DNA of 64,000 nucleotides, taken from assembly GCA_965227295.1 (NCBI GenBank), contig OZ245742.1:352001-416000 (forward strand), read 5' to 3'. The notes beneath the pieces were generated by a model. That model saw only the letters and a program-made list of their open reading frames with translations, made no database searches and was not told the DNA's origin. A program made the translations under genes and the position numbers. Below are positions 15,181 to 18,989 of this stretch, piece by piece (position 1 is the stretch's first letter; each line of letters starts with the position of its first letter). The DNA comes from Leptonemataceae bacterium (lineage in GTDB: Bacteria > Spirochaetota > Leptospiria > Leptospirales > Leptonemataceae).

Positions 15181-15672
15181 TCACTCCGCGTGCGTCCCCG
15201 TCGGCGCCGGCAATCGCGTCCAGCGCTCCAGCAGAAACACTACAACCATGATCATCGGCACAAGAATCGCGCCGAGAAAGATGGCCCCGACGGTTCCCAG
15301 ATACAACACGCCGTAGAAAATTCCGTCGGGAACGCCGCCGGGTTCCAGGTACTCGGTCAGCAGGATCAACGCGAAGGCCGAAACGTAAGCCGCGCAGAGG
15401 TACAGCGCGAGGGCGATTCCCAGTAACTTTACATAACGATACGTTTGGATCCGCGCCGCAAAATATCCCAGAACGGCGCCCGCGGCAATGCCCGCCACGA
15501 ACGGCGCAAAGAAAAACACGAGCGCCACCGCCTGATACTCCGGATCCTGCGGCCCCATGCCCGCCAGCTGTCCGCCGACCCACGGCAAGAAAAACAGCAA
15601 CGCCAGGCCGCCGCCCAGGAGGGCGCCGCGGATGAGACAACGGTTTCGATGTTCGTTTTCAGGAATGCCCAT
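15181..15672 (-). CDS. hypothetical membrane protein (4 TM)
   Basis: Four hydrophobic segments; start uncertain. Confidence 0.65.
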   Translation of the reverse strand: MGIPENEHRNRCLIRGALLGGGLALLFFLPWVGGQLAGMGPQDPEYQAVALVFFFAPFVAGIAAGAVLGYFAARIQTYRYVKLLGIALALYLCAAYVSAFALILLTEYLEPGGVPDGIFYGVLYLGTVGAIFLGAILVPMIMVVVFLLERWTRLPAPTGTHAE

Positions 15673-15763
15673 ACCCCACTCGTCTGCAATGCTCCGACAT
15701 TCGCGAGCGAAAAAAGATCGCGCGGGCTTGACACGTTTCCCGGACGACGACGAAAATCTCCGT

Positions 15764-17266
15764 GTGTCCCTCGTCCGCATCGGCACTGTCCTCGCGCCGA
15801 TCCTGCTGCTTCTGGCGATCACGTCGTCCCGGAGCGAGTCATCTTCCGTTCACGAACCGTTGATCGGCGCGCGCTTGCTCCTGGACGCGCCGCGGGAAAA
15901 CCCCGCCGCAGTCGAACAACGCGCTTACGAAAACGCGCGAGGCTTGTTGTCCCCGCTCGGGCAGTTTCACTTTCGCGGCCTCCATCATCCGGCGCACCGC
16001 TGCATCTGTAAGTCCGCGCCCACGCTGACACCGAACGGCCGGGCCTTCGTCGGTCCCGGCCCGCCCGCGGATGCTTCGTTGTGTGCGCGAACACCGCCGG
16101 GCGAGCAAAAAGATGAGCATGATGCGCCGAATTGTCTTTCGAACGCCGGCCGCTTTCACTTTAACGAAGAAGGCGACGCTTCCATGCACACGGGGGCGCT
16201 GCTCGCGGCCCTCGCCTGGCGCTACAAAAATCATCCCGACCCCGCGCAACGGCGGGACACGCTAAGTACGATTGGCCGCATATTAAGATACTACGAACTC
16301 TTGCAACGGCACAACGACGGCTGCATCGGCCGGAACTTCGTCGCCGCCGACGCCTACGAACGTTTCGCGCCGCAAAACCGCCACGGCACCGAAAACAGCG
16401 CGAGCAGCGTCCTGGATGATCTTTTCGGCAAGGGCAAGGCCGCAAAGTTCGCAAAACGCTATCGCCGCGTCGAACTGGACGACGCACGGCTTCCGTCGCA
16501 GGATCGCGGAGTGTATTACCTGCGCTACGACGTATCCCTGGACGCCGTCGTGCATTCCGTGGCAGGCCTGCACTGGATCACGCGTTTCACGCCGGCACCG
16601 GAACGCGAACGCGCGCGCAAGGTCCTGGCCGCGCAACTGGAGTACTACGAGCGCCGTGCCTGGCGCATCGCCGAGAACGGAAAGATGTTGCTGCACGGCG
16701 ACCACCGCCCGGATCACATTAATCCCATCGCCACCGCCATTGAGCTGATCCTCAAACATAACGTGCGCGGGGAAACGCCGCAAGCTCGCGATGCGCAACT
16801 GTTACTGATCCGCAACTATCGTACGTACGAGCCGGGCATTCACGGAAAGAAAACCGAACGCCGGCAGTTCAACAACTACATGGCCCTGACGGCCTTCGCG
16901 GCCCTGGCCGATCATCCCGACGCCTCGGTACGCGGACATGCCCGGGCCGGTCTGCTCACCGCCGTGCAGGAAAACGAGGCCGAGCTGAATTACTTCGCAC
17001 TCGCCGTGCGCGCGCAGGTCTTCGGTGAAAACACGCCGCAGTTGCGCCACGATCCCTTTGTCCGGCTGAACGATTATCACAGTTTCTGCGGAATGCTGCG
17101 CTCCCCCGCGCCCGCGTTCTTCGAGCAACGCTTCGGTTATAACTGGTGGGAGAACGATGCGTACGAAGTCGCCCTGCCGTGCACGCAGGTGCCGGGGCTG
17201 CAGGATTTGCATCCGGCCGGTCTCACGGGCAACGAGGCCTATCTCCAGGCCTACTGGTGGTACTGA
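15764..17266 (+). CDS. secreted hypothetical protein, possibly helical-toroid enzyme
   Basis: Signal-like LAPILLLLAI; GDASMHTGALLAALAWRY and RYDVSLDAVVH motifs; start GTG estimated. Confidence 0.6.
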   Translation: MSLVRIGTVLAPILLLLAITSSRSESSSVHEPLIGARLLLDAPRENPAAVEQRAYENARGLLSPLGQFHFRGLHHPAHRCICKSAPTLTPNGRAFVGPGPPADASLCARTPPGEQKDEHDAPNCLSNAGRFHFNEEGDASMHTGALLAALAWRYKNHPDPAQRRDTLSTIGRILRYYELLQRHNDGCIGRNFVAADAYERFAPQNRHGTENSASSVLDDLFGKGKAAKFAKRYRRVELDDARLPSQDRGVYYLRYDVSLDAVVHSVAGLHWITRFTPAPERERARKVLAAQLEYYERRAWRIAENGKMLLHGDHRPDHINPIATAIELILKHNVRGETPQARDAQLLLIRNYRTYEPGIHGKKTERRQFNNYMALTAFAALADHPDASVRGHARAGLLTAVQENEAELNYFALAVRAQVFGENTPQLRHDPFVRLNDYHSFCGMLRSPAPAFFEQRFGYNWWENDAYEVALPCTQVPGLQDLHPAGLTGNEAYLQAYWWY

Positions 17267-17283
17267 ACCGTGCCCGCATTGAT

Positions 17284-17311
17284 TTGACAGATTCCGCGAG
17301 ATTTCTAAATT
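17284..17311 (+). promoter_or_regulatory. sigma70-like promoter
   Basis: TTGACA (17284-17289), 16-nt spacer, TAAATT (17306-17311). Confidence 0.6.
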
Positions 17312-17317
17312 ACGGTC

Positions 17318-17527
17318 ACGCAAAAGGAGGTGGTCCAATGATAAGTGAAAGTTCGATGACCAGCGAGGTGGCTGGGCGGTAAGTCCGGCAACTTTGCAAT
17401 GCATTGAGTGCGCGACGTTGTCGCGGCTTGCTGCAATCCAACCAGACCACCGCCTTCCGTAGTTCTCGGACATTGGTCCCCCGAGGCGCATCGCGCAGTC
17501 GCTACGGAAGGTTCTTCAGTTTTCTTC
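17318..17527 (+). ncRNA. candidate structured RNA containing a 14-codon ORF (17338-17382)
   Basis: Promoter upstream, extended SD AAAGGAGGTGGTCC, several stems, terminal 10-bp stem followed by a T-rich tail. Confidence 0.5.
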
Positions 17528-17546
17528 TATAATAAATTATCACAGC

Positions 17547-17795
17547 ATGCTTGAGCTTCGCCCCACCTGCGAGAACTGTAACACGGCGCTGCCGCCGGAC
17601 TCCGCCGACGCTCGCATCTGTAGCTTCGAATGCACGTTTTGCGCAAAGTGCGTCGACGAAATCTTAAACGGCATCTGCCCGAACTGCGGCGGCAACTTCG
17701 CCCCGCGACCCATCCGCCCCCCGGCGGCGCTGCGTCGGCATCCGGCCATCACAAAAGTCACGCACAATCCGTTGAGCGAACGATCACGTCCGTAA
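17547..17795 (+). CDS. DUF1272 domain-containing protein
   Basis: MLELRPTCENC...ICSFECTFCAKC...CPNCGG...RPIRP; TATAAT at 17528. Confidence 0.93.
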   Translation: MLELRPTCENCNTALPPDSADARICSFECTFCAKCVDEILNGICPNCGGNFAPRPIRPPAALRRHPAITKVTHNPLSERSRP

Positions 17796-17810
17796 CATCG
17801 TCAGACATCC

Positions 17811-18989
17811 ATGCCGTTTCGCATTCTCCTTACCTTCCTGCTCTGCTCCAGTTTGATTCTCGCGTGCAACTACGGCGCGGCCCGCCGCGCGACGGTCGGC
17901 ACGTCCGTGGCACCGCTGGTCTTCGTGCCCGGCCTCATGGGGTCCACGCTCTATGACACCGACGGCGAGCAGCTCTGGCTCACGCCGTCCCACGGCCTCG
18001 GCTGGAGCACGCCGGACCTCGGCCTGCCGCTTACCTGGATGAACGGCGTGCAAAGCGGCCCGCGCCTCGTCTCTCGCGGTTCGGTGCAGGCGGTGCAGAT
18101 CCTGTTCGGCCTCCTCGGCCAGGAAATCTACGCACCGTGGGAACGTGCCGCGGCAGAGTTTCCGAATCGCGAACTGCACGTCTTCGGCTACGACTGGCGC
18201 CGGGACAACAACGAGAACGCCGCCGCCCTGGAAGCTTTCCTGGTAAAACTGCGCGAACGCTACGGCGAACGGAAGATCGGCATCGTCGGCCACAGCATGG
18301 GCGGCATGCTTACCCTGGCCGTATTGAACAAACATCCGGACTGGTTTGATCGAGTGGTGTTCGCCGGCGTTCCGTTTCGCGGCGGCATCGGCCACCTGGA
18401 CAATCTGCGAGACGGCACGCCCATCGGCGCGAATGGGGAGCTGCTGACGCCGCCGGTGCTGTTCAGTCACCCGAGCGTGTTTTCGTTTTACCCGTCCGGC
18501 CAGGCCTGGGAAAACCAGGACACCGTGCTCGACGCAAGCCGCAAACCCATTCCGATAAACTTTTATTCAGGCAAAGTCTGGGAAAAATACGGCTTCGGTC
18601 CGTACGCCCCGGAGAACGCCGACTGGTTCAACGAAACCGCGGAGCAACTCGCGCACTTCGAACAACTCCTGGAACGCGGGCGACTCTTCCGTCGATCCAT
18701 GACACCGCGGCGGAACGTCGACTATCCGCCGGCCCTGGTACTCATGAGCAAGGACCATCCGACCATCGCCCGCATCCAGGTCGAAGAAGGCGCCGGCGCA
18801 AACACCGCCCATTGGCGGCACGATCCGGATCGCGAGCCCGGCGACTCCACCGTGCTGTACGCGGACGCCCTGCCGCCGGAACCGATTCGCTACGCGGTCC
18901 ATCTGACGAAGTACGAGCACTCGTATTTGTTGAACGATCCCGCGGCGCAAGAACGCATCGCGGAGTTTCTGGGCGATGCGCTACAATGA
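17811..18989 (+). CDS. LCAT/lipase-like alpha/beta hydrolase lipoprotein
   Basis: Lipobox LILAC; FVPGLMGS, YDWR, GHSMGG, GDSTV and a C-terminal His. Confidence 0.88.
   Translation: MPFRILLTFLLCSSLILACNYGAARRATVGTSVAPLVFVPGLMGSTLYDTDGEQLWLTPSHGLGWSTPDLGLPLTWMNGVQSGPRLVSRGSVQAVQILFGLLGQEIYAPWERAAAEFPNRELHVFGYDWRRDNNENAAALEAFLVKLRERYGERKIGIVGHSMGGMLTLAVLNKHPDWFDRVVFAGVPFRGGIGHLDNLRDGTPIGANGELLTPPVLFSHPSVFSFYPSGQAWENQDTVLDASRKPIPINFYSGKVWEKYGFGPYAPENADWFNETAEQLAHFEQLLERGRLFRRSMTPRRNVDYPPALVLMSKDHPTIARIQVEEGAGANTAHWRHDPDREPGDSTVLYADALPPEPIRYAVHLTKYEHSYLLNDPAAQERIAEFLGDALQ

Follow-up and report, generated by a model that had tools for sequence, protein, structure and literature searches.

What kind of RNA is encoded at positions 17316–17527 of a 64,000-nucleotide stretch of DNA from a Leptonemataceae bacterium (Spirochaetota; Leptospirales; GenBank assembly GCA_965227295.1, contig OZ245742.1, positions 352,001–416,000; hereafter, the window), and what might it do? 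A sequence-only reading of the window had described a promoter-driven, structured RNA of about 200 nucleotides (nt), with a 14-codon open reading frame (ORF) and a switchable helix over an extended Shine-Dalgarno (SD) sequence. It had offered a ribosome-binding or decoy RNA, a micropeptide mRNA and an attenuator for the adjacent DUF1272 gene as explanations. All of the strings and complementarities that it reported were recovered in place. Here, we assign the element almost certainly to the Ms_IGR-5 small RNA (sRNA) family and weigh what its conserved parts suggest about its function. Coordinates are those of the window and all its features lie on the forward (+) strand.

When the entire window was compared with Rfam 15, a single match came back, to RF02471 (Ms_IGR-5), at 17316–17519, covering model positions 1–184 of 184 (45.4 bits; E = 5.1e-07 in 64 kb). 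Rfam describes this family as ‘Actinobacteria sRNA’ and sets its gathering score at 45 bits. This full-length match above the cut-off names an RNA whose family the sequence-only reading could not name and, as that reading had itself allowed, a match to a described family explains the RNA rather than making it new. Counting against the assignment, the window clears the cut-off by just 0.4 bits and the match was therefore tested by comparison.

Actinobacterial loci scoring 124–176 bits carry the same parts as the window: common to both are an extended SD, a short ORF ending in EVAxR before the stop, the motif GAGGTGGCTG, a helix that we term P3, an AAUCC junction, a hairpin loop that repeats the last bases of the SD, and a terminator. 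The window differs in its host (a Leptospirales spirochaete rather than an actinobacterium), in having an ORF of 14 rather than 12 codons, in a shift of 1–2 nt in the register of helices P1 and P2, in a bulged A in P3 and in a strong anti-SD within the P3 3′ strand; unlike in RF02471, GCAGTCGCT is nearly unchanged across Leptospirales. When the Rfam model was run on relatives, 11 of 40 gave one sub-threshold match each (23–41 bits) and ten of these eleven loci passed a two-motif pattern check, the exception being L011 (24.9 bits; handles beginning with L or G are ours, for loci and genomes). All ten have a TTGAC-type promoter-like box upstream, followed by ...AAGGAGGTG[GA]TC..., GAGGTGGCTG, a short ORF ending in T-x-E-V-A-x-[RQ] and a stop, and then ..AATCC..CAGACC[AG]C[CT]; the long terminal hairpin is present in all but L005 and L008, from the same genus as the window. 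Our own cross-phylum covariance model (R1), built on 50 sequences and our own structure, scores the window at 75.5 bits, with the window fitting the pseudoknot and P1 columns.

The homologues and covariation that the sequence-only reading had proposed to look for were sought, and both were found across phyla. On 20 loci scanned at E ≤ 0.01, no Rfam family other than RF02471 was found for the RNA, the only other matches being two tRNAs; these are two tRNA genes directly downstream of the RNA in an Acidobacteria metagenome-assembled genome (MAG) (L044, 116–291, reverse strand). RF02471 scores seven of the eight matched non-actinobacterial loci below its cut-off and eight more of the 20 loci gave no match; copies outside Actinomycetota mostly fall below the cut-off and are therefore missed by standard annotation. 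The actinobacterial host in the family’s name is a label, not a structural criterion, and the window extends its range. We regard membership of the window RNA in Ms_IGR-5 as almost certain, and it is, within the searches made here, the first RF02471 member documented outside Actinomycetota.

The range of the family proved much wider than its name. Within the order, R1 matched 87 of 121 genomes, that of the window (G000) among them, always in one copy; these comprised 78 of the 79 genomes of the sister Leptospira family, which includes Leptospira jelokensis, and eight of the 41 of the window’s own family, so that the RNA is near-universal in the former. Across the phylum, 18 of 151 genomes gave a match, only two of them from outside the order, and one of these two (G126; 24 bits) was rejected as a member after inspection. 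Given that false match at 24 bits, the 15 Acidobacteriota matches below 32 bits need checking; one of the 15, G497 (31.1 bits), is a real member. In all, R1 matched 25 of 151 Acidobacteriota genomes (ten at ≥35 bits, the others weakly) and 75 of 151 Actinomycetota genomes, or 69 of 145 when six unpublished genomes are set aside. A pattern scan with one genome per species yielded at least 120 loci and, among the loci listed, record titles point to Latescibacterota, Eisenbacteria, Zixibacteria, Sumerlaeota and Planctomycetota (two weak cases), as well as to one MAG each titled Syntrophobacter and Heliobacteriaceae, although MAG labels can be wrong. The RNA of the MAG titled Heliobacteriaceae (L040; an 8.4-Mb genome) closely resembles that of a Blastocatellia MAG (L130), and the L040 contig or bin may be mislabelled.

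The RNA has a promoter and an end of its own. A sigma-70-type promoter at 17284–17311 (−35 TTGACA at 17284–17289, a 16-nt spacer and −10 TAAATT at 17306–17311) matches the consensus at 10 of 12 positions and is the sole promoter-like site in 16800–18000, where shuffles expect 0.3; in eight of ten Leptospirales loci, TTGAC[AG] or GTGACG is followed at a 16-nt spacing by TNNNNT, ending 13–14 nt upstream of AGGAGG. Transcription would begin at about 17318. At the other end, the stem in 17453–17511 and the T-rich tail TTCTTCAGTTTTCTTC 3′ of it (17512–17527, read directly from the sequence) form a putative terminator, a compound hairpin of the kind to which a simple terminator scan gives no score. 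The 212-nt stretch has a predicted folding energy of −85.1 kcal/mol (z −3.33), a more stable fold than that of any of 200 dinucleotide shuffles, and the RNA occurs in single copy in the 5.94-Mb genome.

Pfam searches of 147 flanking ORFs at 74 loci returned unrelated families—Cas6, flavin monooxygenase, TetR, MFS, patatin, FUR, ribosomal protein L13 and others—and no shared neighbour, with the proviso that many frames in high-GC flanks had no Pfam match and that the choice of the longest frame is crude there. Genes downstream are likewise unrelated across loci and often on the opposite strand. Since the neighbours differ at all loci examined, the RNA is a stand-alone gene, and 17316–17527 is a complete, independently transcribed sRNA gene of about 205 nt, which bears out the sequence-only view of a stand-alone RNA with its own promoter, unexplained by the flanking genes. 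In the window, it is preceded by a long ORF (15557–17266) with no Pfam family (residues translated from 16100–17263).

What, then, has been conserved in this gene? A ribosome-binding theme, already suggested by the sequence-only reading, runs through everything that is. The extended SD AAAAGGAGGTGGTCC (17322–17336), single-stranded in the comparative anatomy, is a complement of the whole free 3′ tail of the genome’s own 16S rRNA: the single 16S gene located ends ...GGATCACCTCCTTTTT, and its last 15 bases pair with 17322–17336, including one G-U pair, which turns the near-complement noted ahead of the ATG at 17338 into a match to the organism’s own ribosome. AGGAGGTG[GA]TC is present in all 11 of the 12 Rfam-model loci that passed the pattern check (L011 lacks the pattern), and these loci were found without using the pattern. 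Covariation of the bases 5′ of GGAGG with the last bases of the 16S tail was considered and set aside: of ten genomes queried, five gave no 16S match, and among the four in which both parts were readable, three were consistent and G007 had a mismatch at one position. A second SD-like motif, GAGGTGGCTG (17365–17374), lies inside the ORF; its GAGGTG is invariant, and counting 15 nt on from the first base of the motif leads to the stop codon. In members found without the pattern, GAGGTG stays fixed as the bases that follow it covary with the P3 3′ strand. The nearly unchanged GCAGTCGCT (17495–17503) could also pair with the second SD-like motif GGTGGCTG, three of the pairs being G-U, and may possibly be a third partner for it, in competition with the terminator 3′ strand.

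Along its second half, the ORF contributes strands in turn to a pseudoknot, to helix P1 and to helix P3. P1 joins CGC (17319–17321), at the very 5′ end of the inferred transcript, to GCG (17363–17365), in codons 9–10, immediately ahead of the second SD-like motif; P1 appears when the fold is predicted with the SD held open, alternates between CGC/GCG and CAC/GUG in Leptospirales, and shows double changes at all four of its pairs across 100 homologues (AU 65, GC 15, CG 11; GC 43, CG 14, AU 13, UA 11). Next to it, GACCA (17358–17362) has two partners: TGGTC at 17331–17335, with which it forms hairpin P2, present in the minimum-energy fold, and TGGTC at 17474–17478, in a hairpin loop that copies the end of the extended SD, with which it forms a pseudoknot. 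P3 is a 9-bp helix of the form GGUGGCUGN with NCAG(N)CACC, in which GGTGGCTGG (17367–17375) pairs with CCAGACCACC (17442–17451; CACC invariant in the family) around a bulged A17446. Its basal pair varies across the 100 homologues (CG 29, UG 19, UA 11, GC 10, AU 8). The pattern itself sets the P3 5′ strand in the sequences picked with it; members found without the pattern show the compensatory variants GGTGGCAG/CTGCCACC, GGTGCACGG/CCGATGCACC and GGTGTCCGG/CCGCGACACC, and at the RNA level its 3′ half covaries as GGUGGCAG/CUGCCACC, GGUGCACGG/CCGAUGCACC, GGUGUCCGG/CCGCGACACC and GGUGGCG/CGCCACC, with GAGGUG and CACC unchanged.

P4 is a long, variable hairpin (17376–17434; stem 17376–17392 with 17417–17434, apical part 17393–17416) that holds the stop codon TAA (17380–17382) in its 5′ strand, covaries within Leptospirales (e.g. 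AU 4, GC 3) and has double changes at all three basal pairs across the 100 homologues. An unpaired, conserved junction, AATCCAA (17435–17441), separates P4 from P3; AAUCC or a close variant stands upstream of the P3 3′ strand in most homologues. The 3′ domain and terminator (17453–17511) have an outer stem, 17453–17464 with 17500–17511, in which CCTTCCGTAG (17453–17462) is the exact reverse complement of CTACGGAAGG (17502–17511), confirming the perfect pairing reported ahead of the T-rich tail. This stem covaries among eight Leptospirales sequences (GC 3, AU 2, UA 2; UA 3, CG 2, GC 2, AU 1) and encloses a hairpin, H1 (17465–17485, loop ACATTGGTCCC), and a second small hairpin; on its 3′ side, GCAGTCGCT occurs in all eight aligned Leptospirales sequences, with one substitution in L003. 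Among the further stems of the sequence-only reading, CTCGG/CCGAG (17465–17469 with 17481–17485) is the conserved hairpin H1, whose loop matters; CGCGAC/GTCGCG and TTGCA/TGCAA fall in the region that differs between relatives and are not conserved.

Taken over the 100 homologues aligned to R1, P1 and the basal parts of P3 and P4 are paired in 88.9% of alignment cells, compared with 76.5% after shuffling, and their covariation is 0.327, compared with 0.113; none of 500 shuffles reached as high, and partners slid out of register were 27–47% paired. The pseudoknot was counted separately, on a MAFFT alignment of 70 complex-form sequences fitted to no structure, after removal of 26 simple-form loci, seven with a mis-located P3 motif, two duplicates, sequences >175 nt and exact repeats. 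Its five pairs are 90.6% paired (80.3% shuffled), with a covariation of 0.263 (0.091 shuffled), again unmatched in 500 shuffles, and slid controls reach 25–45%; one pair alone is GC in 18, UA in 16, CG in nine and AU in five sequences and unpaired in 20. The majority variant is GGAC-GUCC; GGAU-AUCC occurs in six of seven cases, GUGAC-GUCAC in L021 and L079 and GACCRG-YUGGUC in Leptospirales. Changes in the ORF strand are mirrored more closely by the H1 loop than by the SD-side strand (e.g. L056, L015, L086). Duplex energies of the pseudoknot do not discriminate (median z −0.47, with 17 of 108 at or below the lowest 5% of shuffles), so that the case for it rests on position and covariation.

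Is the ORF translated for its own sake or for its product? In the window it runs from 17338 to 17382, encoding MISESSMTSEVAGR in 14 codons before TAA (17380–17382), with its ATG 5 nt past AGGAGGTG. An equivalent ORF, defined by a start 5–14 nt after AGGAGGTG and an end 13–19 nt after the first base of GAGGTGGCTG, is present at 131 of 131 loci, compared with 23% of loop-shuffled controls. Starts are ATG, GTG or TTG, and CTG in six Acidimicrobiia (L028, L037, L042, L062, L110, L111), where it stands at the start position in frame to the usual stop, making a lineage-wide CUG start in Acidimicrobiia possible. The distance from the second SD-like motif to the stop is almost fixed: among 117 distinct ORFs, it is 15 in 111, 14 in three, 16 in two and 18 in one. 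Most ORFs share a C-terminal T-x-E-V-A-x-R, and the exceptions are informative: the three +14 variants end in GGGC[SR] and the two +16 variants in RWLL[QG], rather than in EVAxR, their starts having moved into the new frame. Twenty R1 matches were retrieved without recourse to the pattern; 19 of them proved to be real members and each of these retains the frame (17 by script, two by eye), with peptides reading EVH, EVS, EVP or EVT where the P3 pairing has changed.

Codon usage tells the same story. Among 70 ORFs of twelve codons, the fifth codon takes the form NGG (R 53, W 10, G 5) and the seventh NGU or NGC (R, C, S, G), and codons 8–10 are GAG GUG GCU with invariant third bases; replacements at codons 5 and 7 track base pairing, not chemistry. 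Translation is under selection, the peptide not evidently so. Stop codons in the 117 distinct ORFs, from mostly high-GC hosts, are UAG in 94, UAA in 16 and UGA in seven; UAG and UAA together account for 110 and therefore 110 of 117 stops are readable by release factor 1 (RF1). The excess of UAG could be explained by structure (GCUAGC in P4) or by a link to RF1. That ribosomes do engage relatives of this RNA is indicated by footprints reported on the homologues in Mycobacterium abscessus and M. smegmatis (PMC4974804); two other studies report RNA-seq support for the Streptomyces lividans transcript (PMC8079986) and detection of the M. smegmatis homologue (PMC10454040).

The window RNA also contains a look-alike of the 16S tail. 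The anti-SD GACCACCGCCTT (17445–17456) is complementary at 11 of 12 positions to the SD at 17324–17335 and provides an alternative to P3 and the base of the terminator; the duplex has a predicted energy of −19.0 kcal/mol (z −2.6) and is kept in six of seven relatives from the family. Forcing this helix yields −80.2 kcal/mol, compared with −85.1 for the free fold, a cost of 4.9, and shortens the terminator stem in this thermodynamic prediction. Placing a ribosome footprint over the start codon is predicted to leave P1, P3, P4 and the terminator in place; with the footprint at the stop codon, 17329–17335 is predicted to pair with 17445–17451. Strong look-alikes of the 16S tail recur in separate places, among them AGACCACCGCCUUC in six of seven members of the window’s family, ..CCUCCUUUCC in Pyrinomonadaceae and UGGACCACCUG in Acidimicrobiia. 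Five Terriglobia loci (L029, L052, L055, L061, L083) have UGACCACCUCUUGGUCA (−20 to −21.6) within the variable hairpin, some 23 nt upstream of the P3 3′ strand, and L093 has UGACCACCUCCG; with such a near-copy of the 16S tail inside it, the RNA contains both partners of the SD/anti-SD helix. On these predictions the switch is a recurrent option, present in the window, not a defining feature of the family.

These parts can be arranged into a mechanism, which we propose tentatively. A 30S subunit with a free anti-SD tail would be captured by the extended SD; the translating ribosome would then unzip the pseudoknot, P1 and P3 in turn, as they lie consecutively on the ORF strand, and would terminate in P4, 15 nt past the start of the invariant internal GAGGTG. 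The latter is separated from the last sense codon by 6 nt, a spacing like that of initiation, at which it could hold the terminating ribosome. Translation would in this way switch the RNA between a closed and an open fold, the open one releasing the strand ...AAUCC..CAGACCACC..., which would refold or, in this lineage, close the SD, admitting one ribosome at a time. What selection maintains would be the capture and passage of ribosomes rather than the peptide, and the RNA would signal or react to the availability of initiation-competent ribosomes. To the explanation as a whole—a stand-alone Ms_IGR-5 sRNA that recruits a ribosome and is unfolded by it—we give roughly an even chance; that the remodelled RNA responds to ribosome supply we hold with somewhat less confidence, as a plausible reading of its anatomy.

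Several observations weigh against this account. The 100-homologue alignment was fitted to our own structure and consists mostly of pattern-picked sequences in which both SD-like motifs are fixed; the invariance of those motifs is partly circular there because the pattern fixes them, a concern relieved for the 19 pattern-free sequences only. A simpler form of the RNA, with a plain terminator and no pseudoknot loop, occurs in Acidobacteria and several candidate phyla. The switchable SD/anti-SD helix of the sequence-only reading stands for close relatives of the window and has analogues in some other lineages; as a general property it falls, since, for the best SD duplex downstream of the ORF in 108 homologues, the median energy is −13.2 kcal/mol and the median z +0.26, and a strong anti-SD is absent from many actinobacterial members. 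Of the 70 twelve-codon ORFs, 39 have serine as their third residue, encoded by UCU, AGC, AGU and UCC (both UCN and AGY); this sole hint of selection on the peptide may instead be a by-product of an A/U-rich loop and start region. The transcription start and terminator of the window RNA were read from sequence, and the notion of a ‘ribosome-supply sensor’ is inferred from anatomy.

Other explanations fare less well. A decoy or sponge for the 30S subunit or the 16S 3′ tail, one that protects or titrates the tail in some growth state and whose ORF only clears ribosomes, would fit the 15-nt complementarity to the genome’s own 16S tail, the second invariant SD-like GAGGTG, the strong consensus-like promoter and the presence of one copy in 78 of 79 Leptospira-family genomes. 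However, a decoy needs no start codon, open frame or fixed stop, all three of which are kept even through changes of frame, and a single-copy sRNA would need ribosome-like abundance, all of which makes this reading unlikely. We find it quite improbable, too, that the RNA acts in trans, with its AAUCC junction and hairpin loops pairing with mRNAs and its ORF and SD mainly stabilising it. It is true that the gene stands alone, with promoter and terminator, and that the unpaired AAUCC is conserved, but a seed kept in three or more phyla calls for a target conserved to the same degree, and we know of none. The strongest conservation falls on the ribosome-related elements, not on the seed, and a mutual-information search within the RNA found no covarying partner for AAUCC.

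The two remaining proposals of the sequence-only reading were both rejected. A functional micropeptide is very unlikely: the same facts that might speak for it—an ORF in every member, the T-x-E-V-A-x-R C-terminus in most, the codon-3 serine drawn from two codon families in 39 of 70 ORFs, and mycobacterial ribosome footprints (PMC4974804)—sit beside E-V-A codons, GAG GUG GCU, whose invariant wobble bases indicate constraint on the RNA, five loci that read the same nucleotides in another frame, as GGGC[SR] or RWLL[QG], and keep an ORF with other peptides, and EVH, EVS, EVP and EVT endings where P3 covaries. The radical R/W/G and R/C/G/S changes track pairing, and, the codon-3 serine aside, there is no amino-acid conservation beyond that imposed by the RNA; peptides of 11–19 residues are too short for protein search tools. 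Attenuation of DUF1272, by a contest between the SD/anti-SD helix and the terminator that would permit read-through, was rejected on context and we consider it scarcely credible. The DUF1272 gene (17547–17795; 101 bits) does begin 20 nt past the T-rich tail, on the same strand and without an SD of its own, the anti-SD (17445–17456) does overlap the terminator 5′ strand, and the alternative fold, predicted to be less stable by the 4.9 kcal/mol given above, shortens the terminator stem. Nevertheless, tblastn searches with the DUF1272 protein against the other loci, including two genomes of the same genus with 1.5-kb flanks, did not find it, so that DUF1272 adjoins the RNA in this genome only; downstream genes elsewhere are unrelated and often on the opposite strand; and a perfect TATAAT at 17528–17533, 13 nt upstream of the DUF1272 ATG at 17547, could serve that gene alone. 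The DUF1272 mRNA may be its own transcript, with a very short leader or none.

Better-known systems share some of these traits. Leader-peptide attenuators (trp/his/pheL and ermCL types) are alike in having a short ORF that remodels helices, including a terminator-proximal strand, with a dispensable peptide; unlike them, the window RNA has no conserved downstream gene or regulatory codon run, and it has its own terminator in every lineage. By analogy, it may work somewhat like a leader-peptide attenuator with no gene to attenuate. The dual-function sRNAs SgrS/SgrT, RNAIII/hld and SR1/SR1P are also stand-alone sRNAs with a translated short ORF; their peptides are conserved and active, whereas the peptide of the window’s family changes with frame and with base-pair covariation. 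Transfer-messenger RNA (tmRNA) is likewise structured, pseudoknotted and single-copy, and it too engages ribosomes through a short ORF within the molecule. Unlike tmRNA, the window RNA has no tRNA-like domain and would initiate by SD and start codon, not by trans-translation; ARAGORN found no genes in 17200–17650 and the Rfam scan of the window no tmRNA match. A tRNA-like RNA or tmRNA was rejected on these grounds, Rfam assigning another family. The programmed-frameshift site of prfB likewise places an SD-like element within an ORF at a fixed short distance from the stop; in the window, by contrast, the spacing is 6 nt to the last sense codon and initiation-like, with no slippery codon or second frame, and we treat the resemblance as a lead.

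In the literature, the accessible mentions of Ms_IGR-5 are listings that state no function, and a search on anti-SD and small-ORF RNAs in Actinobacteria found nothing on this RNA, nor did any of the papers listed by a broader search deal with it. In the accessible part of a study of the Leptospira interrogans transcriptome, the Rfam matches are only the cobalamin riboswitch, tRNAs, tmRNA, RNase P and 5S (PMC5243855), and three motifs of the RNA were not found in the supplements of the Leptospira sRNA paper.

At its broadest, and here we speculate well beyond the mechanism above, Ms_IGR-5 could be an old or widely exchanged single-copy ‘ribosome-supply sensor’, baiting initiation-competent 30S subunits with its full complement of the 16S tail and flipped between active and inactive forms by ribosome passage through the pseudoknot, P1 and P3, a proposition that we consider doubtful. 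Its range would span Actinomycetota, Acidobacteriota and Leptospirales at the least, with Latescibacterota, Eisenbacteria, Zixibacteria and Sumerlaeota added on the strength of record titles; GAGGUG would hold the terminating ribosome and, in some lineages, the mimic of the 16S tail would close the SD behind it. If true, this would define a new class of riboregulator whose reader is the ribosome itself, not a metabolite or a protein. A family filed in Rfam as ‘Actinobacteria sRNA’ is present in a spirochaete order, and tractable hosts carry it, among them M. smegmatis, Streptomyces and saprophytic Leptospira. As a widespread RNA whose conserved features are all ribosome-related, it is a candidate for a general, undescribed link between translation capacity and RNA-based regulation.

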